A stretch of DNA of 64,000 bases, taken from positions 1,914 through 65,913 of the forward strand of contig PGYA01000012.1 in assembly GCA_002839435.1 (NCBI GenBank), given 5' to 3'. The notes under the pieces were generated by a model. The model was not told the origin of the DNA. It did not search any database and was given only the letters and a program-made list of their open reading frames with translations. Below, one piece after another: positions 4,321 to 37,288 of the stretch (positions are counted from its first letter, which is position 1; every line of letters starts with the position of its first letter). This stretch comes from Candidatus Riflebacteria bacterium HGW-Riflebacteria-2. GTDB taxonomy: Bacteria > Muiribacteriota > Ozemobacteria > Ozemobacterales > Ozemobacteraceae. Made by a program: the position numbers and the translations under genes.

Positions 4321-4329
4321 CAAGTAAAC

Positions 4330-6770: not shown

Positions 6771-6791
6771 AACAATTAGACAGTAGTAAGA

Positions 6792-7923: not shown

Positions 7924-7928
7924 TCAAC

Positions 7929-11594: not shown

Positions 11595-11602
11595 GAACAA
11601 CT

Positions 11603-13420: not shown

Positions 13421-13539
13421 AGCGAATCTCATCCAAAACTGAATTGTTATATAGAGCCCGCCAACCTGTTTGACTCGCCTGGTTATCTGTGCTAGATTTT
13501 GTCTGAATCCTGATTCTGCATAAACGAATTGAAGGCATT

Positions 13540-15952: not shown

Positions 15953-15955
15953 GAA

Positions 15956-17833
15956 ATGTGCGGAATATGCGGTTTTATCCGCTCCGAGCCGCGCCAGGGC
16001 AATGACCTGGTAATAAAAGCGATGGCCGCGACTATTTGGCATCGCGGCAACGAAGCCAGTGGTGTTTTTGTTGAACCAGAACTGGCGTTTGGGCATCAGC
16101 GCCTGTCAATTCTCGATCTCGATGCCAGATCGAATCAGCCGATGGTTTCTGGCAATAAGAGATTCGTAATTACCTTTAATGGTGAGATTTATAATTTCCG
16201 TGAGTTAAGGTCGCGACTGCACGGGAAGTCTTTACATACAACATCTGATACCGAAGTCTTGCTCGAACTCTGGGCGCAATACGGGCCTGCCTGTCTGGCT
16301 GATCTCAATGGCATGTTTGCTTTCGCGGTTTACGACAGAGCGCTTAAAGAGCTTTATTGTGTAAGAGACCGCCTTGGTATAAAGCCTCTCGTCTACTGGG
16401 GGAACGGCAGTAATTTTGCTTTTGCATCTGAAGCCAAGGCTTTGCTCAAATATCCAGACTGTAGCAACCAGATCGATTACGCCGCCCTCTCAGATTATCT
16501 GTCGCTTGGCTATATTACCGGTGAAGCAACTATATATGCCGGGATGCAGAAGCTTTCACCCGGGCATTATCTCAAGATTGCCAACGGAAAAGTCAGGAAA
16601 ATATGTTACTGGGATATTGCGCAGAAGCTTGGATCTGCCAGAGAAAACGCGGCTGGCGATGAAATTATGTCGTTGCTTGAATCGGCGGTTAAGTATCGTC
16701 TGATCAGCGATGTGCCGGTCGGCTCATTTTTGAGCGGTGGCATCGACTCGGCTGCGGTGACAACGCTTGCCGCACGGCACTGTTCTGATATTCAGACGTT
16801 CACCATCGGATTTAATGAAGCTTCTTTTGATGAATCTGCCAATGCCGCAGAATTATCAAAAAGTCTTGGTCTGCCCAATCATGTTGATTTTTTTAATGAG
16901 CCGGATCTGGCATTTTTACAGCATCTGGTAAAATACTTTGACCAGCCGTTTGCAGATACTTCAGCTCTGCCTTTCTTTCAGTTATGCAGTAATACCAGTC
17001 GCAATATCAAAACGGTCATGTGCGGCGACGGCGGCGATGAACTTTTTGCCGGCTATGAGACGCGCCGGGCCGATCTTTTTGCCCTGGCCGGCTATCGCAA
17101 TTTCCCATTCTGGAATGGTTTTTTGCAATTGGCTTCTCGGCTGGTCAACCTGATACCGGCAGACCGCGGCAAGGTATCGATGCATTATAAGGTGCGGCAG
17201 TTTTGCGAATTTGCGCATCTACCACCGCCGCAAAGCCATTTTTCATGGCGTTTGCTGTTTAATGAGGATGAGAAAAGAACTCTTCTGGGCGCGCAGATTA
17301 ACGAACAGCTGAAAAATCACCAAACCTGGAATAACTATGCCAGCCTTTTCGCAAAAGTTGAAAAGTTGCCGATGCTGCAGCAGCAGGCTATTGTCGATCT
17401 GCAGACCTGGCTTGCCGACGATATTCTGTACAAAGCTGACCAGGCTTCCATGGCTCATACTCTGGAAGTGAGGGCGCCATTCCTTGATTACCGACTGGTT
17501 GAGGCGGCTTTTGCAATTCCAGAAAAGCTTAAGTTCAATGCGCGTACTACCAAGACCTTATTGCGGCGGAAATTGTCTGCCATACTGCCGGCGCATGTTC
17601 TGAAAAGAAAGAAGGAAGGTTTTGGCAGTCCGGTATCGATATGGCTCGAGGGCCGGCTTGCAGAAAATTTTCTCGACAGCATGCATGATCGTCAGTTTAA
17701 AGAAGTTTTTCCTGATACAGCCGGCATTGTGAAGCTGTATGACGAGCATTGTGCCCGTAAAAGGGACAATGGCTACCGTTTATGGGCGTTATTCATGTTT
17801 GCGCTCTGGCAAAAGGAGTGGCAGCAATCTTGA
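15956..17833 (+). CDS. Asparagine synthetase (glutamine-hydrolysing) family amidotransferase
   Basis: N-terminal MCGICGF nucleophile and an SGGIDS PP-loop. 625 aa. Sits in a glycan cluster, so a sugar or glycan amidotransferase role (WbpS-like) is as likely as housekeeping AsnB. Confidence 0.85.
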   Translation: MCGICGFIRSEPRQGNDLVIKAMAATIWHRGNEASGVFVEPELAFGHQRLSILDLDARSNQPMVSGNKRFVITFNGEIYNFRELRSRLHGKSLHTTSDTEVLLELWAQYGPACLADLNGMFAFAVYDRALKELYCVRDRLGIKPLVYWGNGSNFAFASEAKALLKYPDCSNQIDYAALSDYLSLGYITGEATIYAGMQKLSPGHYLKIANGKVRKICYWDIAQKLGSARENAAGDEIMSLLESAVKYRLISDVPVGSFLSGGIDSAAVTTLAARHCSDIQTFTIGFNEASFDESANAAELSKSLGLPNHVDFFNEPDLAFLQHLVKYFDQPFADTSALPFFQLCSNTSRNIKTVMCGDGGDELFAGYETRRADLFALAGYRNFPFWNGFLQLASRLVNLIPADRGKVSMHYKVRQFCEFAHLPPPQSHFSWRLLFNEDEKRTLLGAQINEQLKNHQTWNNYASLFAKVEKLPMLQQQAIVDLQTWLADDILYKADQASMAHTLEVRAPFLDYRLVEAAFAIPEKLKFNARTTKTLLRRKLSAILPAHVLKRKKEGFGSPVSIWLEGRLAENFLDSMHDRQFKEVFPDTAGIVKLYDEHCARKRDNGYRLWALFMFALWQKEWQQS

Positions 17834-19674
17834 AAGAAAATTCACCCGGAATATTCGAAACACGAAATAGTTTGATTCTGGCACTGCTGGCATTGGTTAT
17901 ACTGACTTTTGCGCCAGTAATGTCAGCAGACTATCTTTTTTTTGACGAACATATCTATATTCTCCGAAATCCTGTCATAGCCGCGCCTTTGTCATTTGAT
18001 TCACTGGCCAGGATTTTCACGTCGTTTGAAAAAAATATATATACCCCTTTGAGCATTGCCAGTTTCTGGCTCGAATACAATATGACGGGCTTCAACAGCG
18101 CGGTATCGCATTTTATAAATCTTCTCTTGCATCTGGGCTGTGCGCTTATGGTGTTTCTGGTTGTTGAAGCGCTGTTAAAGAACAGAAAAATCGCTTTCGT
18201 AGCCGCTGCGATATGGGCGATACATCCCGCTCAGGTCGAGTCCGTCGCCTGGGTGCTTGAACGCAGAAATCTGCTGTATGGACTTTTTTATTTCGCCTCT
18301 ATGGCAGCCTATCTCAGATATCTGCAGCGCTTTCGCGCCGTCGATATGGCTGTCGCCACGGTTTGTATGATTTTATCGGGCTTGTCAAAGAATCTCGCAC
18401 TGTTTTTGCCGCTTGTCTGGCTGATGCTCGACTGGTCGCAAAGCCGGGCCATGACGCGTACTGTTATTGTAGAAAAATTGCCGGCTGTTGTGGTCGCCAT
18501 AGTTTATTTGTCTTTGATGCTTTTTGGCGTTCAGGATGGAATTTCCGGACAAGGTCAGCAAACCTTCAACTGGCTTATCGCTACCTATACTATCGGGTTC
18601 TATGTTATGAAAACAATTTTCCCGATCGGCATTGCTCCCATATACGAGATTAACGCCGGTTCTGAGCCCTGGTTTTTATTTGGTCCAGTTTTTCTGCTGA
18701 TCACACTGGGCGTGGCGTGGTCTTTATGTCGTAAGAATCGGCTGGTTACTTTTGCCTGGCTGTTTTATCTGTTAAATATTGTTCCTCTGTCGGGCATTGT
18801 GGTAGTAGGGTATCCCTTCTATGCTGCCCTGCACTTTATATATGTCGCGCTGTTCGGCATAATCCTAGGTCTGGCTGTGCTGTTTTACAATTTGCTGTCT
18901 TCCTGCGCGAAAGTTCATGTGTTTATGCCGGTCAGTATTGTTTTGACAGTTGCTTTGTCTGTTGTTTCATTCCAGTATTCGCATGTATATACAAACTCGC
19001 GTACCCTTTTTGAGTATGCTCTTGAAATAGACCCGGACAACCGGTTTGCCCGAGGTCAGCTGGCAACTTTTCTGGCAAGTCAAAATGATTATGCCGAAGC
19101 AGGAAAGCATTATCAGGAGTTGATCAAGCGCTATCCCGACTATTTCAGCGGATATTATGGCATGGGGCGTGTTTATAGAAGAGCAGGTCAGTATGATGTC
19201 GCGCTTACCTATTTCAGCCGAGCCCTTGAACTGAATTCCAGGAGAGCTGATCTGCCTTTCGACCGGGGCCTGCTTTTGCTGACCGCCGGAGATTTTGCCG
19301 CGGCAGAAAAGGATTTCTCTCTGTCTCTGCAGAATAAATACTCTAATATGTCTCTGGTCTATTTCTGGCGTTCTGACGCAAGAAGGCGGCAGGGAAACTA
19401 CCTCGGCGCCATAGAGGATTTGCTGCTGGCAGCTGCAGACAATAAAGATGATTTCAGTATTAAAGTTGGTCTTGTCGAGCTTTATGTCGAAAGCGGGCAG
19501 GTTGCTGAAGCTGTATCTGCCCTTATGGCGGTTTGCCGGCAGTTTGCCGCCGACCCATCGCAGCAGCAGGAATATATGCAGATCATCAGTTCCCCGAGTC
19601 TGGCCGCAGTGCTCACCAGATCAGCACTATACCGGAACTATTTCAGATACCACTTTAAGTGGTATCCGCTCTAA
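17782..19674 (+). CDS. GT-C-fold membrane glycosyltransferase-like protein with C-terminal TPR repeats (TMTC / PMT-like architecture)
   Basis: About 10 TM helices with an early FDEHIY..NP loop (DE motif), then at least 4 TPR repeats. The start is uncertain: the ATG at 17782 overlaps asnB by 52 nt, and an alternative TTG at 17830 overlaps by only 4 nt. Confidence 0.6.
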   Translation: MGVIHVCALAKGVAAILKENSPGIFETRNSLILALLALVILTFAPVMSADYLFFDEHIYILRNPVIAAPLSFDSLARIFTSFEKNIYTPLSIASFWLEYNMTGFNSAVSHFINLLLHLGCALMVFLVVEALLKNRKIAFVAAAIWAIHPAQVESVAWVLERRNLLYGLFYFASMAAYLRYLQRFRAVDMAVATVCMILSGLSKNLALFLPLVWLMLDWSQSRAMTRTVIVEKLPAVVVAIVYLSLMLFGVQDGISGQGQQTFNWLIATYTIGFYVMKTIFPIGIAPIYEINAGSEPWFLFGPVFLLITLGVAWSLCRKNRLVTFAWLFYLLNIVPLSGIVVVGYPFYAALHFIYVALFGIILGLAVLFYNLLSSCAKVHVFMPVSIVLTVALSVVSFQYSHVYTNSRTLFEYALEIDPDNRFARGQLATFLASQNDYAEAGKHYQELIKRYPDYFSGYYGMGRVYRRAGQYDVALTYFSRALELNSRRADLPFDRGLLLLTAGDFAAAEKDFSLSLQNKYSNMSLVYFWRSDARRRQGNYLGAIEDLLLAAADNKDDFSIKVGLVELYVESGQVAEAVSALMAVCRQFAADPSQQQEYMQIISSPSLAAVLTRSALYRNYFRYHFKWYPL

Positions 19675-20792
19675 TTATCAGAAGATTTTCTGGCGATCAG
19701 AGACCATAAAACTTTGTTGGTATGGCGCAGGTTGGCAATTGTCATAGCATTCTCTTCAGCCAGTCCGATGACTTCTTCGCGTCTGAAATGGTATGAAATG
19801 GGAGCGTGAAAGAGATCAAAAACCGACATCCAGGTGGTTATGAACCGGTTTTTTGACCAGAGGTTCATGTGCTCATAAAGGGGGATTTTTTGGGCGAGCT
19901 CAGGAGCTGCTTTGCCGGCAGGAACATAAAAAAGCATGATGATAAACTGCAGCACGAAAGCCGGGAAAAAAGACAGTGCGAACAGCATTTTAAGTGGGAT
20001 TTTGTGGAGTAGAAATTTGGCCGGTTCGACGATATGCGTCATGAGGAAATTTCCTTCCCAGCTGTAGACGCAGATGGCGGTCTGGCCGCCATTGCGGGTT
20101 ACTCTGGCAAGTTCTCTGAAACCCTGTTTGTGGTCATGCACATGCTGTAGTGCGTGATCGCAGATGGCAATATCAACGAGATTCGATTGCAGTGGCATTT
20201 GCACCAGATCAGAGCGTATAAGCAGGAGCTCGCTGTCGCTGCATGATTGCAGGAGCTTGCGGGCGGCATATATTTCACGGCCGAGATCGAGGGCAATGAT
20301 GGTCTTAGCACCCATTTTGCTGAGGTGATATACTTCGCGGCCGCGGCCTGCACCGCCTACAAGAACGATTGCGCCTTTAACGGTCTCAGGCTCAATGGGA
20401 ATAAAATTTCTGAATGCCGCGCGGCTCAGGAACCCGTTACTTTCGAGATCACTCACGGTAAACGGATGGATTTCATCCCATTGGTATTCCCAGTTTTTCA
20501 GAACTGCAATCTGCTTGAGCTCATTCGTGTTGAGCTCTTTGTTTTCGTAGGCAAAGTCTTTCGGCGCAAAACCGAGAGCGGCGAGAGTTTCGATCTCTTT
20601 CTGGTTGAGCGCATGTTTGCTGTTTCTGGAAAATAAAACAGCCGCCCCATCGAGTACCGGATAAAGGCGGTTGCATTTTTGACAGCTGATTACGCCATTC
20701 TCGATCTGCTCGTCGCTTATGTTGCCGGCTTTTATCGAGAGGTTGCTGCCACAGTCCAGGCATTTGAGCCAGGAGACATGCTTTATTTTCAT
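19671..20792 (-). CDS. SAM-dependent methyltransferase with N-terminal Zn-ribbon
   Basis: N-terminal CLDCG...CQKCNRLYPVLDG (Trm112-like ribbon). Motif I VLVGGAGRGREV...ALDLG. Starts 13 nt downstream of the pilT stop. Confidence 0.7.
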   Translation of the reverse strand: MKIKHVSWLKCLDCGSNLSIKAGNISDEQIENGVISCQKCNRLYPVLDGAAVLFSRNSKHALNQKEIETLAALGFAPKDFAYENKELNTNELKQIAVLKNWEYQWDEIHPFTVSDLESNGFLSRAAFRNFIPIEPETVKGAIVLVGGAGRGREVYHLSKMGAKTIIALDLGREIYAARKLLQSCSDSELLLIRSDLVQMPLQSNLVDIAICDHALQHVHDHKQGFRELARVTRNGGQTAICVYSWEGNFLMTHIVEPAKFLLHKIPLKMLFALSFFPAFVLQFIIMLFYVPAGKAAPELAQKIPLYEHMNLWSKNRFITTWMSVFDLFHAPISYHFRREEVIGLAEENAMTIANLRHTNKVLWSLIARKSSDN

Positions 20793-20805
20793 CGGTCAGG
20801 CTTGA

Positions 20806-21867
20806 TCAGGCGCTTTTAAGCATTCTTTCGAGCTCTTTTGGATGCATGGTGTGAACCATAGCCTCTTCAAGCGTGATGTCGCCGCGCAGATACAGGTCTC
20901 TGAGAGACATCTCAAAGGTCATCATGCCTTCTTCGTGGCTGGTCTGCATGACAGTATAAAGACCTGAGATTTTCTGTTCGCGGATACAGTTGGCGACGGC
21001 CGGGTTGCCGATCAGAATTTCGTTACAGACGACGCGACCTTTGCCGCTGGCGATTGGCAGCAGCTGCTGGGCAACGACTGCGCGCAGAACGAACGAGAGC
21101 TGCGAGCGGATCTGCGACTGCTGGTGAGGCGGGAACATGTCGATGATACGGTTGATCGTCTGGGCGGCGTCAGTGGTATGCAGGGTGCCAAAGACAAGAT
21201 GGCCGGTTTCGGCCATGGTGCAGGCGGCGCCGACGGTTTCGAGGTCGCGCATTTCGCCTACCAGAATGACGTCGGGGTCTTCGCGCAGTACGCGGCGCAG
21301 CGCTTCGCCGAATGACTTGGTGTCAATGTGCAGTTCGCGCTGGTTGATGACTGAACGCTTGTGGTAGTGCAGGTATTCGATCGGGTCTTCGATCGTCATG
21401 ATGTGGCAGCGTCTGGATTCGTTGACGATATTGATCAGGCAGGCAAGCGAAGTTGATTTGCCTGAGCCGGTAGGGCCGGTAAACAGCACCAGTCCCTTGC
21501 GCATGCGCGTAAAATCGCGAAGTTTTTCCGGCAGGCGGAGCTCTTCAAGGCTCGGAATTTTGGTCGGAATAATTCGGAATGCAGCACCGATACAACCGCG
21601 CTGCTTATAAACGTTGACGCGGAATCGCCCGAAGCCATGCACCGAATATGACATGTCGAGTTCAAAATTTTCTTCAAACTCTTTCTGCTGTTCGGCAGTC
21701 AGCATGTTATATATCAGGGATCTTGTGTCCATCGGGGTCAGAACGTCGAGGTCAGTCTGGATAAGTTCGCCATCGACACGGATTACCGGTGGGGTACCCA
21801 CGGTAATGTGAAGGTCTGATGCCCCATTTTCAATGACCAGATTCAACAAATCGTTCAGGACAAACAT
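20806..21867 (-). CDS. pilT: Type IV pilus retraction ATPase PilT
   Basis: 353 aa, Walker A GPTGSGKST, Asp box, His box, and the PilT-specific AIRNLIRE-like region. AAGGAG RBS. Confidence 0.9.
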   Translation of the reverse strand: MFVLNDLLNLVIENGASDLHITVGTPPVIRVDGELIQTDLDVLTPMDTRSLIYNMLTAEQQKEFEENFELDMSYSVHGFGRFRVNVYKQRGCIGAAFRIIPTKIPSLEELRLPEKLRDFTRMRKGLVLFTGPTGSGKSTSLACLINIVNESRRCHIMTIEDPIEYLHYHKRSVINQRELHIDTKSFGEALRRVLREDPDVILVGEMRDLETVGAACTMAETGHLVFGTLHTTDAAQTINRIIDMFPPHQQSQIRSQLSFVLRAVVAQQLLPIASGKGRVVCNEILIGNPAVANCIREQKISGLYTVMQTSHEEGMMTFEMSLRDLYLRGDITLEEAMVHTMHPKELERMLKSA

Positions 21868-21926
21868 TTCCGCACTCCTTAATGGATCTTTTTTTTATAT
21901 TATTATCGAAAGTCTTTAAAAACAAC

Positions 21927-21973
21927 ACTCCCTCGCCTGCCGTGGCAGCGGGGGAGTGAGGGTTTCTTTTTTG
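21927..21973. terminator. Bidirectional intrinsic terminator between pilB and pilT
   Basis: Stem CACTCCCTCGCCTGCC / GGCAGCGGGGGAGTGAGGG followed by TTTCTTTTTTG. The reverse complement is also followed by a T-run. Confidence 0.45.
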
Positions 21974-21994
21974 TGGGAAAGAGTCTGCATCAAC

Positions 21995-23851
21995 TCAGTG
22001 CTCGCCCATGGTGACGCGAAGAACTTCTTCAAGAGACGTCATGCCGGTCAGGGCTTTGCGCAGGGCTGATTCACGCAGTGACAACATGCCTTCTTCGATC
22101 GACTGGCGGCGGATATCGTCGGTTGAGCCGCCGTTGAGAATGATGTCACGCAGGCGTTCTGACATCATCATGACTTCATATACGCCGACGCGGCCTCTGC
22201 TGCCTGAGTTGGCGCATGATTCGCAGCCTTTGCCCTTATAGAACATCATATTCTTTTCGTTGATGTGTGGAAGGTCAATTCGGCGGATAAGTTCGGGGGT
22301 GATACCGAACTGGGCGATCTGTTCGGCGCGCGGCTTGATTTCGAATTTGCAGTCTTTGCAGATTTTGCGGACAAGTCGCTGGGCCTGCACCAGAATTACC
22401 GAAGTGGTAACCATGAATGGCTCGATGCCCATGTTGACGATACGACCGATGGTGCCTGGCGCGTCGTTGGTGTGCAGGGTCGAGAGCACCAGATGGCCGG
22501 TCATCGACGCTTTGATAGCGATTTCTGCCGTTTCAAAGTCGCGAATTTCGCCGACCATGATTACGTCGGGATCCTGGCGCAGGAAAGAGCGCAGCGCCGC
22601 CGCGAAAGTCAGGCCGATTTCGGGTTTGCACTGTACCTGGTTGACGCCGTGCAGCATGTATTCAACCGGGTCTTCGGCCGTCATGACGTTGGTGTCGATT
22701 GAGTTAACCGAAGTCAGGGCCGAATAAAGGGTAGTGGTCTTGCCCGACCCGGTTGGGCCGGTAACCAGAATGATGCCATATGGTGACGCAACACCTGTTT
22801 TGAAGCGTTCAAGCGTTTTGGGCTCAAATCCGAGGTCTTCGAGGTTGACCTTCAGTGAGGTCTGGTCGAGAATACGCATAACGATCTTCTCGCCCCAGAT
22901 AACCGGCAGAACCGAGACGCGCAGATCGATCATGCGGTTGGAAACCTTGATCTTGATGCGGCCGTCCTGCGGCAGGCGCTTTTCGGCGATGTTCAGCGAT
23001 GACATGATTTTGATACGTGAAGTGATAGCGGCTGTCGCTTTTTTCGGCGGCTGCATGGCGGTATACATCATGCCGTCCTGGCGGTATCTGATGCGCAGTT
23101 CTTTTTCGAATGGCTCGATATGAATATCAGAAACACCGTTCTGAACTGCCTGTGAAATAACAAGGTTACACAGCCTGATGATCGGCGCGTCGTTTTCGCC
23201 GAGTTCGCCGAGGCCGTCGAGGTCTTCGTCGTCTGAGTGGCCGATGTCTTCAAGGTCGTCCATCAGTTTGTCCTGCTGGGCGACGGCGCCGTAGGCATCC
23301 TGCAGGGCCTTGTTGATATCGGTATGGGTGGCGACAACGGGTTTGACCATGAGGGCGGTCATCAGCTGAATGTCGTCGATCGCGATGATGTTGAGCGGAT
23401 CGACCATGGCCACGGTGAGCTTGTTTCCAACCTTATTGATCGGAATCAGCATGTGGCGCTTGGCAATATGTTCGGGAACCAGCTTGGCAATGACCGGGTC
23501 GATGAGGTAGTTCGACAGGTCGATGAAAGGAATGCGCAACTGCTTGGAAAGGATCTGGACGATGTCCTGTTCGGTGACGAGATGCATTTCGACGAGAACG
23601 GCGCCGAGGCGCTTGCCGCTTTTCTTTTGCAGGGCAAGAGCTTGTTGCAGCTGTTCTTCGTTGATCAGGCCTTCCTGGATCAGGGCGTCGCCAAGGCGCA
23701 GTTTCTTGGAAAGAATCGAGGTAGCCGCCGCAGATTTGGGTGCGGATGCCGACTGGCCTGGAGGTGGCCCTCCAGCCGGTGTCGCGGCCGGTGCTCCAGC
23801 GGGGTGTAGTCCGTCTGGTGCCCCTGGTGCGGCAGGAGGAGTTTGATTCAT
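21995..23851 (-). CDS. pilB: Type IV pilus assembly ATPase PilB (GspE family) with N-terminal Pro/Ala-rich low-complexity segment
   Basis: T2SSE_N domain, Walker A GPTGSGKTTT, and a C-terminal tetra-Cys motif (CKDC...CESC). The first roughly 45 aa are P/A/G-rich. Confidence 0.9.
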   Translation of the reverse strand: MNQTPPAAPGAPDGLHPAGAPAATPAGGPPPGQSASAPKSAAATSILSKKLRLGDALIQEGLINEEQLQQALALQKKSGKRLGAVLVEMHLVTEQDIVQILSKQLRIPFIDLSNYLIDPVIAKLVPEHIAKRHMLIPINKVGNKLTVAMVDPLNIIAIDDIQLMTALMVKPVVATHTDINKALQDAYGAVAQQDKLMDDLEDIGHSDDEDLDGLGELGENDAPIIRLCNLVISQAVQNGVSDIHIEPFEKELRIRYRQDGMMYTAMQPPKKATAAITSRIKIMSSLNIAEKRLPQDGRIKIKVSNRMIDLRVSVLPVIWGEKIVMRILDQTSLKVNLEDLGFEPKTLERFKTGVASPYGIILVTGPTGSGKTTTLYSALTSVNSIDTNVMTAEDPVEYMLHGVNQVQCKPEIGLTFAAALRSFLRQDPDVIMVGEIRDFETAEIAIKASMTGHLVLSTLHTNDAPGTIGRIVNMGIEPFMVTTSVILVQAQRLVRKICKDCKFEIKPRAEQIAQFGITPELIRRIDLPHINEKNMMFYKGKGCESCANSGSRGRVGVYEVMMMSERLRDIILNGGSTDDIRRQSIEEGMLSLRESALRKALTGMTSLEEVLRVTMGEH

Positions 23852-23925
23852 TTCTGCAGTTCCTTCCTTATTTCTTTACCAGAAATAATGCCTCATTTTA
23901 CCTAACTAAAGCAAGTAACCCGAGG

Positions 23926-24759
23926 TTACCCGCCAAAAATGCACTTTCTAATCACCTGCTCGGGCGCTGTCTGCCCGGTTAACAGTCTGAAAGATTCTAA
24001 TCCCTGTTCCAGCAGCAGCTCCCGGCCATCAATTACGCTACAGCCATTTTGCCGAGCTGTTGCCACCAACCTGGATTCTGGCGCATAATTAAAATCGACA
24101 TAAAACTTGCTTTTGCTGAGAAATTCTTTGAACTCTGCAACAAAATCATCTTTATGCCACCCCAGAGGGGTCGCGTTGATTATTATATCAGATTCTTCTA
24201 TTGCATGCTCTAAGTTTTTCTCATTCCATGCCAGTCTTTTTATATTATAGGGGGGTTCTGAGTCAATAGAGTCAGAGGAACTTCGGGCGATCTGGAAAAC
24301 GCGGGCGCCGCTGAGCAGTAAGGCCTGGCAGGCTGCTGCTGCCGCGCCGCCGCTTCCCATTACCAGGCCTGTCTGTGGCCGACCCAGCCGCTCGAGAATG
24401 CGCAGGCATCCGGTGGTGTCGGTGTTCCAGCCTTCGATGCGACCATCTTCGCAAAATTTCAGGCAGTTGACCGCTTTTATTACATCGGCCGGGCTGTACA
24501 GCGTGTCGCAAAATAACGCCGCCGCATGCTTGTGGGGACTGGTTACATTGATGCCTCTTACGCCCAGCGCCTTCAGGCCGGTGATGGCGTCGGCGAGGTC
24601 AGCTCGGCAGACGCGAAGGGGTACATAGACGGCGTCGATGCCGCAGAATGCAAAAGCCCGGTTCCAGAAAACCGGGCTGAGAGAATGGCTCACCGGGTCG
24701 CCGATAATGGCAAAAACCTGGCTGGCACCGTTTATTTCAAGGTTCGCGTTTTCTGACAA
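23926..24759 (-). CDS. aroE: Shikimate dehydrogenase
   Basis: GDPVSHSLSP and NVTSPHK motifs, with a GSGGAA Rossmann motif. TTG start with an AAGGT RBS. Confidence 0.85.
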   Translation of the reverse strand: MSENANLEINGASQVFAIIGDPVSHSLSPVFWNRAFAFCGIDAVYVPLRVCRADLADAITGLKALGVRGINVTSPHKHAAALFCDTLYSPADVIKAVNCLKFCEDGRIEGWNTDTTGCLRILERLGRPQTGLVMGSGGAAAAACQALLLSGARVFQIARSSSDSIDSEPPYNIKRLAWNEKNLEHAIEESDIIINATPLGWHKDDFVAEFKEFLSKSKFYVDFNYAPESRLVATARQNGCSVIDGRELLLEQGLESFRLLTGQTAPEQVIRKCIFGG

Positions 24760-26473: not shown

Positions 26474-27169
26474 TCATATACCTGTCAGACCCATGTCCAT
26501 AAGGGTCTTGTAAATCTGAGCGACGGCACTGTCATTCGAATTGTCTTCTGACCTGGCAATGTTGATCTGCGTTTTCGCCTTATCGTCGTCGCCGACGCCG
26601 CCCCGCCAGAAGTAACAGAAAGCCAGCATGGCGTGCGCTTCGGCATTGCTGACCCCGATCGGATGCGTCGAAGTGAAGCGATAGGCAGTATTGCTGAGGC
26701 CGACTGCTTCGAGCAATTGAATCGCTTGCGTGATTCCGGCATTCTGGCCACGCTGAATCAGAGCGGCCGCGAGACCGATGCGAGCTTCATTGTCAGAAGC
26801 AGAAGCCTGAGTAAATGATGAATAGCCAGATTCAACCCCGGAAGATTTGGTCAATGACCAGCCAAGGCCGTTGTAAGCCTGAACTTTTTGAGTTTCGGTA
26901 ATATTGGTAATGGTCAGAACCTGATTGAACTTGTTGATTGCGCTGCTGAATGCGCCATAGCGAAAGTCTTCCCAGGCGGAAGCAAGCAGTGAATCAGGAT
27001 CGGTTTCACCGACTCCGCCGCCACCAGTGCCTCCCCCTCCGCCACCAGTACCGGGTGTCGGTATTTCTGGCGGAATAGTATAGCGGCCACTGCCGCCACC
27101 GCTGCCGCAGCCACTGGCGAGGAAGAATATCACTGCAATGGTCAGCACCACTATCGATTTTCTGTTCAT
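26474..27169 (-). CDS. Lipoprotein with Gly-rich linker (partner of giant surface protein 1)
   Basis: Lipobox LASGC, then a (G)n linker, then a roughly 170-aa domain homologous to the C-terminal domain of 37367-38119 (shared AYNG.GWS ... GVS.AEA.AMLA..FWR...GDD ... SED.S..S.VAQIY.TL...GL.GI). Confidence 0.65.
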   Translation of the reverse strand: MNRKSIVVLTIAVIFFLASGCGSGGGSGRYTIPPEIPTPGTGGGGGGTGGGGVGETDPDSLLASAWEDFRYGAFSSAINKFNQVLTITNITETQKVQAYNGLGWSLTKSSGVESGYSSFTQASASDNEARIGLAAALIQRGQNAGITQAIQLLEAVGLSNTAYRFTSTHPIGVSNAEAHAMLAFCYFWRGGVGDDDKAKTQINIARSEDNSNDSAVAQIYKTLMDMGLTGI

Positions 27170-27177
27170 CTTGCTAT

Positions 27178-27262
27178 CTCCATCTTCTCGTGCTCGTAAT
27201 CGTAATCGGTATCGTAATCGTAATCGGCATTTGGTGGGGGCGCGTCGCGACGCGCCCCTACG
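27178..27262 (-). promoter_or_regulatory. Leader region of lipoprotein 1: GC-rich palindrome plus tandem GATTAC motifs
   Basis: In the sense orientation: CGTAGGGGCGCGTCGCGACGCGCCCCCAC hairpin, then CCGATTACGATTACGATACCGATTACGATTACGAGCACGAGAAGATGGAG, then about 10 nt, then ATG. The same pair of elements recurs at 54148-54282. Confidence 0.4.
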
Positions 27263-27268
27263 GGGTTG

Positions 27269-30200
27269 TTATCGTAATACCGCGATTTTGTGCGTATATT
27301 TGGTCTTTTTACCCCAGTCGTCGGGATCTCTGACCGTGATGCGGGCGAAATACACGCCGTTGGCCACGGCTTTGCCGCCGGTGGCGCGCAGATCCCACAA
27401 TACTTCCTGAACGTGTGTATTGCCCTGTTTGCTGCTGCCACGCAGGCTGAGGTTGCGCTGGTCGGCAACCTTGTGGCCGGCGACGTCGTAGATATTGACT
27501 TCGACTTCGTTCCAGTCGATATCGTTGCGGTTGGTGCTGATGCGCATGCTGGCACGGTTGCGGGCCGGGTTCGGGTATTGCACGACATCATAGATATCCA
27601 GCGGGGGCTGGGCCACGAAGCGCAGTGCCGGGGTGACCGTCATATTGCCGGCCTTGTCGGCGATGCGCAGGCTGATTTCGTGCTCGCCGCCGATCAGGTT
27701 TTCAACCGGCACAAAGTTGGCGGTGATGCCGGCTTTGTCGATCATCAGCGGCTGCAGTTTGCCGTCGAGCATGGCCCAGGCTGAATCACGGTCGAGACCC
27801 GAAGCGAGTTCCTCGAGCTGCCAGCTGAAGGTCGGGCGGGCTTCGCGGATCGGTTCATCGCCGATCTCTGTCGTCATATTGGCGCGCGGCGCCAGAACGT
27901 CTTTCATCATAGCGAAGGTTCCGCCGGTAGTTTCTTCAAAGCTGGCAACTCCATCGCTTACTGCGAAGGCAACTGGTTTCCAGCCTGCCGCCTCGCTGCG
28001 ATACATGCCAATGCCATTGCCGATCTGGCTTTCTTCAAGTTTAAGACTCATTCTGACCGGCTTGATAATGCGCCCGGCCGGAACATTGAGACTGTAAGCG
28101 CTGCCAACTGGCGTCAGTTCAATTGAATTACCGCTGCTGCTGCCGCTCAGACTGCTGCCGCGCAAAGTCGAGCGTTGCTCGGCACTGAGGTCAGCCATAA
28201 TGCTCGGCACGATCGAGGGCAGTGTTGTGTCTTCGCCGACCCTGGCAAGTTCTTCGTGGAGAACTGTAACCACAGAATTGCTCTTAAGCGTTCCAGGTTC
28301 AAACACCACCTCGAAGTTCTCATCAACCGACTTGACCGAAGCTCTTACCGAAGCATTCACATAGGCGGTTGAGAAGCTCATGTTTGAGGTGCCGAGGTTG
28401 CTGGAAGTGTCACGAGCGCTGACTTTTATGGTTGCTACGCCAGGATAGTTAGAATCTAGATGAGCTCCACCAATGAATATCATGCTGTTCGGGCCCGGAT
28501 TCAATATCAGCGAGATGGCTGAGGCTCCGCTCTGGGTGATTGTGGCAGTTGGTGCGCCAGACAGCGCTTCATTGGACTTGACCACTACACTTATGTCGAA
28601 TTCATTAGCCGGGCTGCTGAAGGCACTGATAAGGAGTTCCGGTGGTTTTATGTCGCGACCGAAGAACGGCAGGCTGCTGTTGCTGAGGTTGCCGAAGTTA
28701 TCCTGAACTCCGGTAGCGGTAATTGTATATTCAGTGTCTTCTACGATGTCGTCGCGGCATGAAATAGTTACCGAACTCTTATCAGCCCGAACTGTAACAG
28801 AAAGAATAGTGAGTTCTGTACTGGCAGTGCCGGTCGTGAGCTTATAATTGGAAACTGTTCTAGCCGTAGTTTCTTCGATCTGTTCGCTGAACACGACGTT
28901 GAACTGTTTCTGTGAAGTCAGGCCATCATAGGTGATGGTAGTAATCTCAGGGCCTTTGGTGTCGGCCGTGAAGGTAGCTATGTTGTAGCCAGTTTCAAGT
29001 GGAACACCGTCGAGACTTGGATACCCCACGCTAACAGTTATTGTATAGGCAATTCCATCTGCAAATGGCATGGTAAATGGCAGAGTTACCTTGTTGCCAT
29101 CTATATTGTCTACGGTCATTGCGCCGACAGATATGCCCACCGGCAGGTTTTCGGCAGAAGAGATCGTGAAAGGCGTGCCTGATGCGATGCCTGTGAATAC
29201 ATCATGAGAGAAAGTCAGCAGGGCGGTTCTGTCATTAACCTGTGTGACTCCGGTAACTCTGAAGCGTGAAGTGGTAACTTTGATGTCCACAGTGATACCT
29301 GAGGGGTTGCCGGCCAGGTCAGTTACCGTAACCTGATAGACGCCATCCTGAACAAGCTGCTGGCTAGTGTCTTTCCCGTCCCATAGGGCTGTCAGGTCTG
29401 TTGCACCAGGGCCTCCCTCGAGAAGGATTTCTTTGATCAGCGTCGAGCCGACGGTAATTTTTGCCATTGCAGTGCCCGAAGCGATATCACTCGGATCTGT
29501 CGTGGTAGCTACAATTCTGAGCTTATTAGTGGCGCCCCATGGGCTGAAGCTAGAGACCTCAGTACCGGTATCGTGCCGGTATAGCCTGATGGCTGAGATG
29601 GGAGGCGAAACTGTATCTATTATCAGAGTGGCAGTCGCCTTGCTGTTGGCACCGCTGCCGGTGCCGACGTTGCCGGCGAGATCGACGAGCGAAACCATGT
29701 AATTCCCGTCTTCGAGGCGGCCTGGTGGTGTATTGGTATGTTTACCATCAAAGCTGATCGTATATCCGGTTGTGGTCTGGCCCATCTGATATGTCTCTGT
29801 GGCAACTCCGCTGGTAAGTCGCATTTTTACTGTGTCGCCGCCAGCCGGGCCGGATACGTCTACTTTTACGAATGAGCTGACAATTGGACTGAAGTAAGCG
29901 ACATTGTTTACGGTCTTGACATTGGCGAACTGCCATGAACTAACTTTAGGCTCTTTGCCATCGTAAGTTATTGTGCCGCGCGTGCTGCCTTCGTTGTTGG
30001 CATCGTCGTATACCCGCAGTTCGAAGCTGATCGGGCCAAGCACCCCATAGAAAAGACCAGTAGCAGTAGATTTGCCATCCCAGGCAGCAGTCCCGCTAAG
30101 CCTGTCGGGAGCAAGAGTAAGAGGAATGCTGGCGATTTCTGTGCCATTGGTCGGCTGAATTCTCAGCCAGAGGTCAGTTGCAACCGGTGCCTGTTGAAAG

Positions 30201-33200
30201 GTTACCGTTATGGTCGCAACATAAGGCTCGACATAAGGGCTGAAAGGCTGGTTTACCAGAACAGTATTGTCTTTGGCGGTTGTCTGCTGGTAGGTCGTTA
30301 CTTCGTAACCACTTATAATCGGGCCTTTCGATCTGATCGTGACTGGAATAGAGGCGATTCGGCTGTCGGGATCGTTTGCTCCACGGTTGCCTGCCTCATC
30401 GAAACCGCCAGATACGAAGTAGTAGTATGGCCCACCCTGCAGGGTGTTGGCGTCGAAGTTGGCGGAGTTGGTGAATAGTGCCGTTCTGCCGTCTTGCCAG
30501 TTGCGGAATACAAAGGACATTACGGCTGTGCCGTCGAGCCCAAGCCGCATCTGCGGTTCCAGGGTGCCACTATCACCGCGGTTCATGTCTTCATCAAAGA
30601 TGACTTTGAAATAGCTGCCGGCAGGCATTATGCCGATTGTGTAGGAGCCAAGAGTTGTGTTCGGCTGAATTACATCGATTGCCCTCGGCATTTTGTTATC
30701 GAACACCATCTGCGCTCGCGTGTCATCAAATCCATATTGTGAAACACCGCTGGTTGTTTTCTTGCTCAGGTCAAATGCTTCACTTGCCTGGCCGAAAGCC
30801 GGTGCTCCGACATTGAATATGTCAGTAAAATTGCTTACCTGAACGTATACATCGATTTTCTGGAGATCGCCAGCTTCAGGCAGAGTAGTGTTGGTGTATC
30901 GCGCTACGGTTCGTGTAACACCACCCTGATTATGATCGAGCCAGCTGACGAATTTTCCGGTGTCGATGCGGACATTGTCGGACGATCTGTACAGTTCAAG
31001 AATGGGAACGATATTGCGGGCGATGGGTATGCTTACATCAGCCGACAATGTTGCTGTTTCGAAGGCTACTTCATAGAAGAAGTTGTCAGCAGGATAACCT
31101 TTGAACAGCTTGGTGCTGCTGGCTGTAGTGACCGGGCTGATAGCAACCGTATGAATTCTCGCCGGAGCATAACCTGTTGGCAAATTCTTCTGCAGCAACG
31201 ATGCCTGACCGCTTGTGCCCGGGAAGGCTTCGCTTAAATTGCCCCACAGATCTCTGAATGCGCTGTTCGAGCAGGCCAGGAAAAAGTCGCTGGTTCCCCA
31301 GCTGAGAATAGACTTCAATGCTTCATCGCTAAGCGGAATTCTGATAGTAGTCGAAGCGTAATCATTAAGCTCTGTATAGCTGTTGGCTCCAGTCCACCGA
31401 ACCATAGGATTGGCCTGACTGAGGCTGCCGAGAGATATTGAGCGGCTGTTGGCGGTATCCGCCTTCTCATAGATGTAAACCCTGGAAAGATCTGCGGGCT
31501 GGGTTTTGGTCAAGGACAGGGTACTTTCGTTATGAGCGTCGTTGAATAGTCTGGCTCTTCTGTTCTGTATGTTGATTGTAAGCATCGGAATCCCGCCACT
31601 GAGGTCGAGCAGGCTGCCGGCAGCTACCTGGAAAGGAGTGCTCAGCGGCGTGAGACTGGCAACTACTGCGTTGGTTGGCGTTATCGGCATGACACTATTG
31701 CCCTCTGTGTCGCGTATGAGAGGCGTCAATCCGTTATACGGTGGTGGCTCAAATTCAGTGCCGGTGATCTGCAGGTGAAACTGAGTGCCAAGTCGACCAT
31801 ACTTAAGTGCTATCCAGTCCTGCGCTTCCTGTGAAAGTTCAACTTTTAAAGATCGCAAAGTATTGAGAGTGCTGTACGGGTCAAATGTGTCTGAGGCTAA
31901 AGTGTTGAAGCGATATCTATTGACCCAGGTCTCATTATTTGACGCCCGGTTGCCCCATATTGCGAGATTTTTCAGAGTTGTGTCATCCATTGTCGTGGCA
32001 TCCATATCTTTGTCGAATTCGATATAGAGCTGTTTGCTTATTTCATCGCTGAGATTGGCGACATAGCGCCCGCCAATGAGCTTCGGTCGAGTATAGAAGT
32101 CGTTCGGTATCAGAAGCTGCTGAAGGGTGATGTTGCGCGAAATCGGCTTCAGCCAGTTGCCGGACTCATCTTTTACGACATGAAAGATAGGGTCGAAGCC
32201 GGTTTGTGTGTCATTTGTCGAAAGTGAAATGTAAAGGGTTCTGCGACCCCAGTCGGCGATTATCGTTCTGCTGGGAGAAGCCAGCGTAATCTGCATTGTG
32301 TCGGTGATGCTCTCTGTTATCAGAAGGTCATTATTGGCAAGACTTAGGGCAAAGGCTGTTTTATTGCCTACCTCTATGTTGGTGTGGGCGTTTCTGTATC
32401 CTATCCTGATCTGTTCGATGTCAAAAGTCGCCGGATTTACCGGTTCAGAGAACACCAGGCTCAGGTTCATTCCGTCATAGGTGGCATACGACAGTTCAGG
32501 GCGTTTGCTGTCTACTGCAAGCTGAGTGTATTCGTCGTCTACATAAGCCTTGTTGCCATAACGGTCGACGACATAGATTCTGAAAGTATGGGTGGCGAGG
32601 TCATAATTGCCATTCTCAAGCCGGTAATGCGCATATTTGTTCGGAAAGGTTATGCCCCCATCTGTAGAAAAGCGTGTTGCATTAACTGCATTGGGCTTTA
32701 ATTGATAAGTAGTGGTGGCGCCAATGGGAGAAAGGTCAACATAGGCCTGTCCGTTTGGAAGAGCTTCAGTCAGCTCGACCCAGGCAGATATGCTGTCAGA
32801 TGCGACACCATTGCCGACATTCGCTACCCAGTTCTCCGTATTCTGTGGATTGACAACTTCTACCCGCTGAACAATTGTATTAATATTGATAAGCGGGGGT
32901 TGATTATCGAAAGTCAATGCCGGGCTTGGGACAAGCTTGCCGGAAGTGGTCTGGTTATCGGCATCGTCGGAGACAAAGATTTCATATCTCAGAATGTCGC
33001 CATTGACTATCAGCCATTCACCTTCACCAACTTCAATCGGAACAGCAGTGGTTCCGGTAGCGACCTCAAAGGTGGCCTGCCAGACGTTGGTTCCTGTTAC
33101 CTGAGTAAGGGGTGCTCTGAACACTTCCTGCGAGCCCAGCGAAGTATAAAGAACGACCGTAGCTGAGCCCGGGTCGGTAAAACGTTCAATTTCGGCTTCG

Positions 33201-36200
33201 ACCCTGATTATGTCACCAATGTTGGCGGTGTTGGCAATAAGATTGTCGCCGTTGTTTTCAACTACTATCATTTTTGCGCTGCCGGCTTTGATTCTGGGCA
33301 ACAGTGTGTCTATTCCGAACGGATTGGCCGGATCACATTCTATTACGGAGTTTGCCATGGTCAGCGCAGGGGTGTCAGGGTGTAATACCTTGACCGGAAA
33401 GCTGACTGTATTTGCATCCAGGCCGTAATCACTGGCCGAGGCGACGAATGTGGCAGAGTAGATGTATGGAGCTCCGCTGGCAGGAACATAGCTCAATGGT
33501 GTCCAGTAAGTTCTGATATCTCCATCGTAATATCTGGCAGTTGAATCGTCACTGGTGCTGTTCGTGATAGTGCGAATATCAGCGAGGACTTCTGCAACCG
33601 GATCATTGGCTTCATTGTAAAGCGAAGAGAGAACCGCTGTGATTTTAACGCTGTCGCCAGATGCTATATAGGTGACAGGATTGAGTATGTTGTTGAAGTT
33701 CCGGTCTACGAAGAGATCGGTCCGCGACTGTGGAAATCCTGCAAAAACAGGGGTTTTTGATAAAAACCTTATGGGTATGGTATAGGCGACGGACATGTTC
33801 TTGTTGATGTCAAAGGCGAGAATAACCAAAGAAGAGCGTGTACCTAGACCTTCTGGAACTGTCCATTGATAGGTGTATTCATTTCCACCAGAGGGGTTTG
33901 GCGGAAACAGTGTCGGACTTGGTGCCGTAAGGCCATTTTCATTGAAGAGATTTTCAAAGTCTATCTGTGGCAGAATTCCGTCATGATAATTCAGACGCAC
34001 CTTGATCTGTATTACATCGCCGAGATTGGCTTCGCCCTGGCGGCCGTTATCGACGACAAAGGTGATCGGGTAAATTTCGATTGTCGGTGGGCGATTGTCA
34101 ACGACAACACTGTTGGTCGTGTTGGAGACAACTTCATTGCCGTTAACATCGGTGAGCTTTACGGTAAGATATACTGTTTCGCCGTTTGTTGTGCCGGCTT
34201 TTGGCATGTATTCCTTCTGAACCTGCCATCCGCCCGGTGCAACCAGCGGGGTGACCATGCTGGCGGTGTCAGTATAGCCGAATTTGCTGAGATCAACAGT
34301 AATGGTGCCCATATCATTTGAGCTGCCCTGAATGTTCAGTTCAAGTTTTACCACATCTGTCGCTACAAAGTGTTCGGTTGTATAATAGCCGTCGAGATCG
34401 ACAACTCCATTGTCATTGGTATCAACCACCTGGGTGACGGTGATGCTGTTAACAACCAGGGGCTGGTTATCGACAAAAAGCTGTTCGGTGCTGGCAAGTC
34501 CTCGATTACCTGCGTTGTCGGTGATCTGCACGGTAAATGTCGTGCTGGCACCATCAGTAGTACCGGTAACAACCGTGTGTGTATAACCATAAAGACCGTC
34601 ACCGGCAATACCGTCGTTATTGGCGCCGTCATCAAGCAGTTGCTGAGCAGAACTGCCTCCGATTGCGGTAAGGTTAACCGTTGGTGCGCCACCATCGAGT
34701 CGCCCAAGGTCTACTTTGGCGAGAATACTCACCTTGTCGCCAATATTTACCACGCCCTGTTTCCCTTTGAGATCCTGGAAGGTCGCTGAGGCATATTCGA
34801 TGAAAGGTGGTCGGCAGTCGACTTCGAACGGCGACGACAACGAGTTCATTATGTTTCCCGCCTTGTCTGTAACTGAAGCCCTGAAAATATAGCTGGGATT
34901 TTCGGTTGCAGACTCGAGGCAGTCGTGAATAAGGTAATAACGTCGTAGTATGGCATCGTAACTCATTACGTATGAGCTGGCGCCGCCGACTAATGAGAGA
35001 TCGATCGTGCAGGTTCCAGCATCAGGTTCGTCTACGGGGACTATTAATTCAAGCCGGTCACCGATGTTAACTACTCCTGACTTATTGAGGTCGGTTAGCC
35101 AGTTTACAGCCATTGGACCAACATCGCAGGGACGGTTGTCTATTTTTACCTTTATCGTTCCAGGTCTGCTGTTGCCGGCATTATCAGTAGCGGCAAAGGT
35201 GAAATAATATTCATTGTTGAGAGTTCCGGCAGGAACATCTGTGGTATAACTGTATGAGGCGATACCGTCATAGACCATGTCGACTGCGGCTGCTTCGCCA
35301 AATTCGCTTAAATTAAGCTTTACAGATTCACTGTCATGCACTGAAGCAGATGAGCTGGCGAGCTGAACTCTGAAGGTGACACGATCATTAACTCTTACGA
35401 ACGGATGAGATGGAGTTAGAACCGGATCTGATATGTAGGATGATCCGATGACGAGCGGTGGTTCGTTATCGACCATGACCGGGCTCGATACCGTCTGAAC
35501 CATATTTCCGGAATCATCCACTGCATAAATGGTGAAGGCTACGTTCTGATCATAGGGAAAACCGGTGGTAGGGTCGCCAACAACATGGTCGAGGCGATAG
35601 GTAGTTCCTGAATAAGGAGCCAGAGTGCTGCTGGCAGTTCCCCCTATCCTTTCAAAGTTCACCCATACGCTGCCGTTATCAATGTTGGCGACACTGGCAG
35701 AAATCGCCAACTGGTCGCCATGCCGTATTATCTGATTCGGCCGGGAGACATTCTGAATCTGGGCGCCGCTGAGAGTGGGCGGGGTGTTATCGACATAAAC
35801 TATAGGCAGAATGACCTGACTGATCTGGTTGCCGGCAGTGTCTTTGGCAGTCAGTGTGAAGGCGCGTGGCATGGTGTTTTCAGAGGTATACTGAATTACG
35901 TTGTAGAGAAGCTCAAATGTGGTAGTAGCGGAATTGTTGAACGGAACGATCTGGTTAGCTACACCGCCAATGGCACTAAGATCTACGGTAATGATAACAT
36001 CGTTCATGACGCTCGACATATTGCCGTAAAAGTGCAGCTGGTCGTTGATTATAGCGATGTTGTCGCCGATGATGCCGCCGTTTTCAATCATTGCGACGCC
36101 CATTGGCAGTGAGAATTCTGGTGGTATATTGTCGAGGGCAAGCGGGTTTGATGTGCGCGGATTGCTTGGGTTGCCGGCATCATCCGTAGCTCTAACTTCA

Positions 36201-37180: not shown

Positions 37181-37288
37181 AGCAATGGTTCCTCCGGGTG
37201 GAACTGATAGTTTTCGACTAGTCAGATAGTTCATCGGCAATTCCTGACGAAATCCGGAGTAAAAAAAATGATATGGCAATATCTGGCT

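Follow-up and report, generated by a model that had tools for sequence, protein, structure and literature searches.

The junction considered here, at positions 27178-27262 of a 64,000-nucleotide (nt) stretch of contig PGYA01000012.1 from Candidatus Riflebacteria bacterium HGW-Riflebacteria-2 (the whole stretch being called the window), lies between the stop codon (27269-27271) of a gene for a 3336-aa protein and a gene for a 231-aa lipoprotein (ATG at 27169-27167), both on the minus strand, and contains a palindrome followed by an array of GATTAC hexamers. An earlier interpretation made from the letters alone, the sequence-only reading, had described palindrome and array together as a recurring two-part regulatory element at three loci. 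Locus 1 is the gap that separates the stop codon of rpe (gene at 3592-4248) from a TPR gene with its ATG at 4330, locus 2 is the junction itself, and locus 3 is the gap flanked by hisS (54341-55693, minus) and a 179-aa open reading frame (ORF; 53496-54035, minus), in which the array and the order palindrome-then-array are read on the plus strand, antisense to both neighbours. The features are collected in Table 1.

Table 1. Hexamer arrays, palindromes and ribosome-binding sites (RBS) at the three loci; REP, repetitive extragenic palindrome
Feature	Position	Strand	Remark
Hexamer microsatellite, 4 units CGATTA CGATTA CGAGCA CGAAAA	4289-4312	+	locus 1, rpe-TPR gap
TPR gene RBS GAGG	4317-4320	+	ATG 4330
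Lipoprotein RBS GGAG	27178-27181	-	sole junction part kept in all four relatives' junctions examined
Hexamer microsatellite, 7 units CGATTA CGATTA CGATAC CGATTA CGATTA CGAGCA CGAGAA	27185-27226	-	locus 2, lipoprotein leader
GTAG-headed REP-like palindrome, minus-strand GTAGGGGCGCGTCGCGACGCGCCCCCAC	27234-27261	-	6-7 nt past the giant-gene stop codon (27269-27271)
Perfect REP-like palindrome CGTAGGGGCAAGTCGCGACTTGCCCCTACG	54148-54177		on the minus strand followed by ATTTTTAATC, terminator-like
CGATAC-type array, CGATAC CGATAC CGAACT	54236-54253	+	locus 3
Array CGATTA CGATTA CGAGAA CGAGAA	54259-54282	+	locus 3, 58 nt past the hisS stop codon
Third palindrome CGCAGGGGTTCAACATGTTGAACCCCTGCG, same outer stem, different core	54291-54320		first terminator-like hairpin after hisS, minus strand

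The string GATTACGATTACGA occurs exactly at 4290 (+), 27194 (-), 27212 (-) and 54260 (+), and when up to two mismatches are allowed nine overlapping matches are found against 0.26 expected in the window, so the repeated motif is present at the loci named for it, far beyond chance. A scan of the window for CGA at a period of 6 bp returned intergenic arrays at these three loci only. The array at locus 2 is tandem-duplicated with four GATTAC units (CGATTACGATTACGATACCGATTACGATTACGAGCACGAGAA), as had been stated, and the distance from the end of the array to the ATG, given before as about 10-20 nt, is 17 nt for the TPR gene and 15 nt for the lipoprotein gene. The tail AAGAT(A/G)GAG, which had been counted as part of the motif and within which the RBS lies, stands at loci 1 and 2 only. 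It is absent from the third copy, which was found close to where it had been placed (54258-54282) and which in its own orientation is not upstream of any gene. A reading of the array as an N-terminal extension or other peptide was rejected, the GAT TAC frame differing from that of the TPR ORF at locus 1 and reaching a stop codon that overlaps the ATG at locus 2, and a CRISPR-like reading was discarded for units that are 6 nt long and without spacers. The mini-ORF ATGGAGATAGCAAGATGA (MEIAR-stop; 27167-27184, minus), which overlaps the lipoprotein start codon (ATGA), is probably a product of chance.

The palindrome, written as GTAGGGGC-NN-GTCGCGAC-NN-GCCCCTAC, occurs at 27234-27261 and 54149-54176 where none is expected. 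The two copies had been called near-identical and perfect; both are present, the one at 27234-27261 being imperfect, with one mismatch and 94% complementarity, and they differ at the NN positions in a compensatory manner (CG..CG against AA..TT). A third palindrome at 54291-54320 (CGCAGGGGTTCAACATGTTGAACCCCTGCG), missed before, has GCAG/CTGC in place of GTAG/CTAC, which brings the 64-kb window to two copies of one core and one of another. All three are 28-30 nt long and 94-100% complementary, form hairpins in the predicted folds and are located between co-directional genes, at distances of 6-7 nt, 20 nt and 163 nt from the stop codon upstream of each. Of the proposed two-part element, the sequences themselves are there, and both parts occur together at two loci only; the spacing from palindrome to array is 7 nt at locus 2 and, at locus 3, 58 nt for the CGATAC array and 81 nt for the GATTAC one.

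The genome is close to the metagenome-assembled genome (MAG) of Ca. Rifleibacterium amylolyticum CH46. Two segments of the window, 2601-6663 and 20806-24089, align to a scaffold of that MAG with 81% and 91.5% identity, respectively, and nearly all homologues of the lipoprotein and the TPR protein are from Riflebacteria MAGs. Among relatives at locus 2, two contigs with an identical lipoprotein (L119, L120) equal the window base for base, and a third (L121), its lipoprotein likewise 100% identical, is without exactly 18 nt, or three units (the block GATTACGATTACGATACC). In L122 (lipoprotein 89% identical) the GATTAC array is replaced by CGACAACGAGAACGACAACGAGAAG and a variant palindrome is present; L123/L124 (85%) and L125 (80%) have neither a CGA array nor a GTAG palindrome, and the L125 junction contains (GTAGTGATC)3 instead of the array. 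Despite these changes and losses, GGAGATAG(C/T)A..ATG is kept in L122, L123/L124 and L125. At locus 1, CH46 has three GATTAC units against two in the window, the remaining spacer being about 90% identical, and L248 (86% protein identity) has three units of which one is mutated. In L249 (75%) the array is rearranged and broken up by an inserted hairpin-like tract, and in L250 (63%) it is gone from a 24-nt junction that retains the RBS alone. Another gap of the window, 6610-6791, holds remnants only (..ATCGG....TCGTAATC..); CH46 has there (TATCGG)5(TCGTAA)4, nine units, together with another hairpin, and a Riflebacteria contig (L149) has a TATCGG array adjoining the palindrome GTAGGGGCGCGTCGCGACGCGCCCCTAC. 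Differences of whole units between strains, here the 18-nt indel, two units against three and remnants against nine, are the hallmark of variable-number tandem repeats (VNTRs) and simple-sequence repeats, and turnover this fast at orthologous sites points to microsatellite or insertion-prone repeat DNA, since a conserved operator or leader would not behave so. The RBS is the sole conserved part of the two junctions.

The junction 27178-27262 is probably made up of two independent, fast-evolving classes of intergenic repeat, a REP-type palindrome and a hexanucleotide microsatellite, and is probably not a dedicated regulatory site; all the other explanations weighed here are ranked below this one. 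Both repeat types are real, evolve independently and quickly, and belong to widespread families. From strain to strain and from species to species the array grows and shrinks by whole units; it is replaced or lost at orthologous sites, faces either way relative to genes without preference, and avoids divergent, promoter-bearing gaps. Its unit changes would arise by replication slippage, and in the two leaders it may serve as a length-variable, unstructured spacer before a conserved RBS, any influence on expression being one of tuning at most. The array is like bacterial VNTR loci in its 6-nt head-to-tail units and in the whole-unit differences between strains and species. It is unlike them in that the same pair of units occurs in about 12 phyla, in the compound order (GATTAC)n then (GAGCAC)m, in frequent inverted pairs of fixed polarity and in showing no evident tie to either a promoter spacer or an ORF.

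A contingency locus, of the phase-variation or rheostat kind, would make use of the same slippage to shift the distance between hairpin and RBS in steps of 6 nt and thereby tune lipoprotein expression among cells. The two alleles 18 nt apart among contigs with an identical lipoprotein fit this, as does the cell-surface nature of the encoded proteins, which are typical contingency targets. The array lies, however, in neither a promoter spacer nor an ORF, so that no on/off mechanism is evident, the same arrays also occur downstream of genes and antisense to them, and only two alleles were seen; the explanation is regarded as very unlikely.

How far the array extends beyond the window was investigated by scanning one genome per species for GATTACGATTACGAGNACGA. 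At least 118 stretches, representing about 12 phyla and nearly all from MAGs, contain the exact 20-mer, and the details that follow are among the matches listed. Carriers were labelled Acidobacteriota, Planctomycetota, Verrucomicrobiota, Kiritimatiellia, Victivallales, Hydrogenedentota, Sumerlaeota, Riflebacteria, Desulfobacterota, Nitrospirota, Chloroflexota, Bacillota and Bacteroidota/Melioribacteraceae. Arrays of 4-15 units are seen in the flanks, compound ones built as (GATTAC)n(GAGCAC/GAGTAC/GAGGAC)m, in which CGATTA (424) and CGAGCA (304) are the commonest units; the general form is CGA-N-N-A, with A in position 6 of 84% of units. The sequence-only reading had named, as what would speak against it, a motif frequent inside coding regions and without bias towards gene starts. 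What was found is that 24 of 133 array matches fall within an ORF of 150 aa or more, most being intergenic, and that the arrays are neutral in orientation to genes. For 74 of the 133 the gap type could be assigned. Convergent gaps hold 29 arrays (51 other gaps of this type in the same loci), co-directional gaps 39 (201 other gaps) and divergent gaps 6 (67 other gaps), a convergent-to-divergent odds ratio of 6.3 in favour of convergent gaps (p = 4e-5). The co-directional cases comprise 16 sense and 23 antisense arrays (p = 0.34), and within Riflebacteria there are about 5 sense and about 6 antisense cases. An inverted partner within 150 nt was found for about 20% of arrays, with the preferred polarity GTGCTC..GTAATCG - spacer - CGATTAC..GAGCAC, that is, with GAGCAC outside and GATTAC inside (16:2 at four or more units; about 45:9 at three or more, p ~7e-7). 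The spacers between the inverted arms are unrelated sequences of 11 to about 150 nt.

Response-regulator operators and extracytoplasmic function (ECF) sigma factor promoters had been proposed for the array on account of its direct repeats, which do stand near two gene starts in one window. Direct repeats bound by response regulators are usually about one helical turn, 10-11 bp, apart. The period of the array is 6 bp, which puts successive units on different faces of the helix, and the space before the RBS is too short to fit both a promoter and an untranslated leader. The array is moreover not conserved at orthologous sites and varies in copy number within one population, it is orientation-neutral (16 sense, 23 antisense) and depleted in divergent, promoter-bearing gaps (6, against 29 in convergent ones), and the same 20-mer stands beside unrelated genes in about 12 phyla. 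No sigma-70-like promoter was found within the gap of locus 2 or of locus 3. An operator or promoter part that defines a regulon is thus most improbable. No counterpart of the extended leader TTACGAGCACGARAAGATRGAG was found among the metagenome contigs, a weak negative as the collection may not include the source sample.

The arrays could alternatively be the ends or bodies of a non-autonomous mobile element resembling miniature inverted-repeat transposable elements (MITEs), with inverted terminal arrays, moved in trans and exchanged between phyla, the copies in the window being solo or decayed. Identical units in about 12 phyla, the inverted partners of strong polarity, the presence/absence differences between relatives at orthologous gaps and a placement resembling that of REPs would all be accounted for. 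Against this, neither a transposase nor any other gene recurs near the arrays, the arms vary in unit number without defined ends or target-site duplications being seen, the spacers that separate them (11 to about 150 nt) are of unrelated sequence, viral contigs contain almost no arrays, and length change by whole units is typical of slippage, not of transposition. A mobile element of this type is considered unlikely. The neighbourhood was surveyed by clustering 471 ORFs near arrays, which gave common families only (two-component systems, aminotransferases, dehydrogenases) and no recurrent neighbour gene. In viral contigs two array matches were obtained, one of them genuine and intergenic (L127), and the palindrome was not found at all; with arrays near-absent and the palindrome absent there, spread by phages is not supported. 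In L127, an IMG/VR contig, the array lies amid other word repeats (2150-2260) and ends about 19 nt before a putative ATG. A 42-nt model array matched plasmids, mainly Ralstonia megaplasmids, and the one match inspected (H1) was a coding His-rich tract (HDHEHEHEH...), not an intergenic array; in a phage collection the same model gave partial, chance-like matches only. A full-text literature search with the strings GATTACGATTAC and GAGCACGAGCACGAG and their relatives, with Riflebacteria and with hexanucleotide and tandem repeats, returned nothing relevant on the array, the coverage of the literature being incomplete.

A further proposal is that the compound arrays (CGATTA)n(CGAGCA)m make up a class of bacterial intergenic element that spans phyla, has not been described before and has a biology of its own. 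This is prompted by the same units in at least about 12 phyla, the REP-like, promoter-avoiding placement, the fixed polarity of inverted pairs and the lack of a linked gene, and it is held to be possible yet rather doubtful. Conserved trans-acting machinery could then stand behind the arrays, be it an enzyme that mobilises them or a protein that binds DNA or RNA and reads ACGA at 6-nt spacing, and the same machinery might also lie behind other 'word' repeats in the intergenic gaps of these environmental lineages. Arrays with dedicated machinery would amount to a new kind of widespread bacterial repeat system. In four loci from a Sumerlaeia MAG and the unclassified MAG bin.378 (L018, L083, L093, L117) a conserved tract of about 30 nt, GAACCGATAACTTTCGTCAAGCGCTCTAG, regularly comes after the array, which suggests lineage-specific composite elements built on the array.

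The RNA fold of the leader had been put forward as a check on the regulatory reading. Predicted folding of the coding-strand RNA at locus 2 gives the hairpin of the palindrome only and leaves array, RBS and AUG unpaired, and the leaders fold no better than shuffles (z = -1.05 at locus 2, -1.34 at locus 1); the array is thus predicted to be unstructured as RNA, and the palindrome to fold into a stable hairpin. Searches against Rfam gave no match at gathering score in the whole window, and permissive local searches gave matches at chance level only (E = 0.26, 0.69). An unpaired array could be a functional 5'-leader module, either a standby platform for ribosomes or a platform for an RNA-binding protein (ACGA at 6-nt spacing), that sets the translation of the downstream gene. 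This comes close to the shared translational leader proposed from the letters alone, of which one part stands: at loci 1 and 2 the array lies in the 5' leader directly before the RBS, 15-17 nt before the ATG, with RBS and AUG free in the predicted fold. Elsewhere, 10 of 35 sense-upstream arrays among the matches listed end 10-21 nt before a putative start, and locus 1 keeps its array down to 75% protein identity. The other part does not hold, as the array is not conserved and defines no regulon. Half of the copies are antisense to the flanking genes, so that GUGCUC/GUAAUC would appear in their RNA; arrays are enriched in convergent gaps and depleted in divergent ones; at orthologous leaders the array is lost or replaced while the RBS is kept; and the extended leader is without a match in the metagenome collection. 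A leader module is therefore judged quite unlikely, and the microsatellite remains the favoured explanation of the array.

The hairpin predicted at locus 2 has 9-13 bp, is G+C-rich and starts 6-7 nt past the stop codon of the giant gene, and it is followed by CACCAAATGCC with no T-run. The suggestion that it is a terminator or attenuator between the giant gene and the lipoprotein gene is reasonable in view of its position and composition, although without a T-run it is not a canonical intrinsic terminator. Strong hairpins of differing sequence directly follow the giant-gene stop codon in L119, L121, L122 and L123, which suggests that the presence of a predicted hairpin at this place may matter more than its sequence. 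REP hairpins of E. coli, in the work of Newbury et al. from 1987 and of Liang, Rudd and Deutscher from 2015, are reported to act within operons as mRNA stabilisers, attenuators and modulators of translation. E. coli examples are the malE-malF REP and the REPs within about 15 nt of a stop codon. The predicted hairpin at locus 2, in an uncultivated organism, is like these in lying between co-directional genes, 6-7 nt past a stop codon. It might act on the mRNA by protecting a 3' end or by partial attenuation of read-through, uncoupling the giant gene from the lipoprotein gene, and at a distance of 6-7 nt an effect on termination of giant-gene translation is also possible.

At locus 3 the hisS (minus) strand has three terminator-like sites against 0.5 expected, namely the two palindromes and a small hairpin from the reverse complement of the CGATAC array (54262-54240), each with a T-rich tail, and the predicted minus-strand folds are strong (z = -6.35 for 54200-54345, and -3.70). 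These hairpins, on the strand opposite to that of the array, probably form the terminator region of hisS. With T-rich tails following them on the hisS strand they are like Rho-independent terminators, unlike the locus 2 hairpin, which is without a T-run; on the plus strand no hairpin is terminator-like.

The palindrome was searched for in metagenome contigs with the pattern GTAGGGGCNNGTCGCGACNNGCCCCTAC and was found in at least 120 contigs, with 127 copies among the matches listed. The NN pairs are complementary in 118 of these 127 (GG..CC 34, GC..GC 34, AG..CT 27, CG..CG 11, and others), so the symmetry of the palindrome is maintained. Eighteen of the listed copies lie in (15) or beside (3) ORFs of about 175-190 aa (e.g. 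MKFDP..VMPNHFH..GRGGSRPAPT..) that resemble REP-associated tyrosine transposases (RAYTs). Against NCBIfam NF047646, the family of these transposases, the ORFs scored E = 8e-19 and 3e-17 (68 and 63 bits, the equivalog cut-off being 80), and no Pfam match was obtained at E <= 1e-5. The palindrome family is linked in this way to RAYT-like tyrosine-transposase genes. Copies inside the RAYT-like frame encode ..GRGGSRPAPT.., for example in L151 (4994-5518), L246 (876-1451) and 13 further metagenome loci, an unusual arrangement because described REPs flank RAYT genes. In L211 (1005-1125) three palindromes stand in tandem at a 46-nt period, each followed by ..TTCGTTTTCATC.., and many other metagenome copies are nested in a larger inverted repeat, GTGAAAATAG..GTGTCGG[palindrome]GGTTCGTTTTCATC.

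Nunvar is said to have described GTAG-tagged REP elements together with RAYT transposases in 2010. Such REPs are known from several phyla, including the Planctomycetes-Verrucomicrobia-Chlamydiae (PVC) group and Chloroflexi, often adjacent to RAYT genes (Di Nocera et al. 2013, PMC3733652). Most of them follow an ORF, in gaps between co-directional or convergent genes; they plausibly form hairpins in RNA, and their GTAG tetranucleotide stands unpaired at one end (PMC3733652). The palindromes of the window are like them in being 28-30 bp long, G+C-rich, headed by GTAG in two of the three copies, extragenic and downstream of ORFs in co-directional gaps, and in occurring as several related copies with a common outer stem for which a role as RNA hairpin is plausible; the wider family is also like them in adjoining RAYT-like genes in 18 of the 127 listed metagenome copies. 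They are unlike described GTAG REPs in that 15 listed copies of the family lie within the RAYT-like frame instead of flanking it, in RAYT-like ORFs that fall below the NCBIfam equivalog cut-off, and in the 2-3 copies without a RAYT found in the 64-kb window.

Palindrome and array rarely meet outside the Riflebacteria. None of the 127 listed palindrome copies has a CGA array within 120 nt, and among the matches listed for the array loci (at least 118) there is a single palindrome of this type, at position 524 of L044, with the TTCAACATGTTGAA core as at window 54291. From this near-absence of co-occurrence elsewhere, the two-part association is confined to the Riflebacteria. The two share gaps because permissive intergenic gaps of this lineage accumulate a mosaic of repeat 'words', in the manner of bacterial interspersed mosaic elements (BIMEs). 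BIMEs and the mosaic intergenic repeat regions of Neisseria have been described (PMC3733652), and the present gaps are like both in that unrelated short repeat families crowd the same places (window 54036-54340 and 55694-56369; L044, 150-750), while unlike them the component words are different. A word of the type CCGCAGATGGCGCAGATTACACAGATTAAAAATC adjoins the locus 3 palindrome at 54117-54147, and a (GAA)18 microsatellite at 55962-56015 is flanked by words of the type CACAAAGCCACAGAG; the same mosaic of CACAAAGCCACAGAG and CCGCAGATGGCGCAGATTACACAGATTAAAAATC types fills the 600-nt gap in L044.

Several observations weigh against two unrelated repeat classes as the full account of the junction. 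The locus 1 array survives down to 75% protein identity, and the order hairpin, array, gene start is found in sense orientation at three gaps of the Rifleibacterium lineage (locus 2, and the 6610-6791 gap in CH46 and L149), a recurrence that could reflect function rather than tolerance. The gene calls in the fetched loci are simple longest-ORF calls, which makes the context counts approximate. The strong polarity of the inverted pairs points to an unknown active process or a selected function, and slippage accounts for the change in copy number, not for the same two hexamers in about 12 phyla. On the side of the palindrome, the GTAG of the window copies pairs with CTAC, so that they are fully symmetric with the tag on both strands, which sets them apart from described GTAG REPs, and no RAYT gene was found in the 64-kb window, where only 2-3 palindromes were seen. 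The roles proposed at the level of RNA are all ones that we infer.

With two repeat classes as the probable explanation, the window would hold no regulon or operator, the similarity of the three loci would stem from repeat DNA, and a false lead is removed. Beyond the window, a GTAG-type palindrome family is common to very many environmental metagenomes, often inside RAYT-like genes, and one specific hexamer microsatellite is common to about a dozen phyla whose members are mostly uncultivated. Repeats of this kind give rise to spurious ORFs, interrupt assemblies and can be mistaken for regulatory motifs in motif discovery, which makes their recognition practically useful.

The 3336-aa protein encoded upstream of the lipoprotein is probably secreted and has Ig-like domains in its C-terminal part and a weak match to Por_Secre_tail, a sorting domain of the type IX secretion system (T9SS). 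Its gene (27269-37279) is the first of two giant genes in tandem, the second (38123-50185) encoding 4020 aa, and a small ORF follows each of them (231 and 250 aa, respectively); the 231-aa protein after the first carries a signal peptide of the lipoprotein type. The genes around the cluster include ones for type II/IV secretion ATPases, a prepilin peptidase and a pilin. The second giant gene is preceded by a 667-nt gap that contains a HicA toxin gene (Pfam PF07927, E = 3e-10) and an overlapping 79-aa ORF without a Pfam match (50423-50620 and 50617-50856). No tRNA or tmRNA gene was found in the window. A segment of about 13.5 kb, 7235-20805, is missing between the syntenic blocks of the CH46 MAG locus (L081), and encodes a GT2 glycosyltransferase, a B12-binding radical-SAM protein, an asparagine synthase, a TPR protein, a methyltransferase and several ORFs without a Pfam match. 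The window also contains a family of hairpin repeats of about 75 nt, GTCATTGCGAGG...GATTGCTTCGC...CGCAATGAC, at 5704-5781, 56200-56275 and 63345-63415, with related words at 1-45 and 63232-63270; two of the three copies match another CH46 MAG locus (L089, ~4912-5028) with 76-81% identity.

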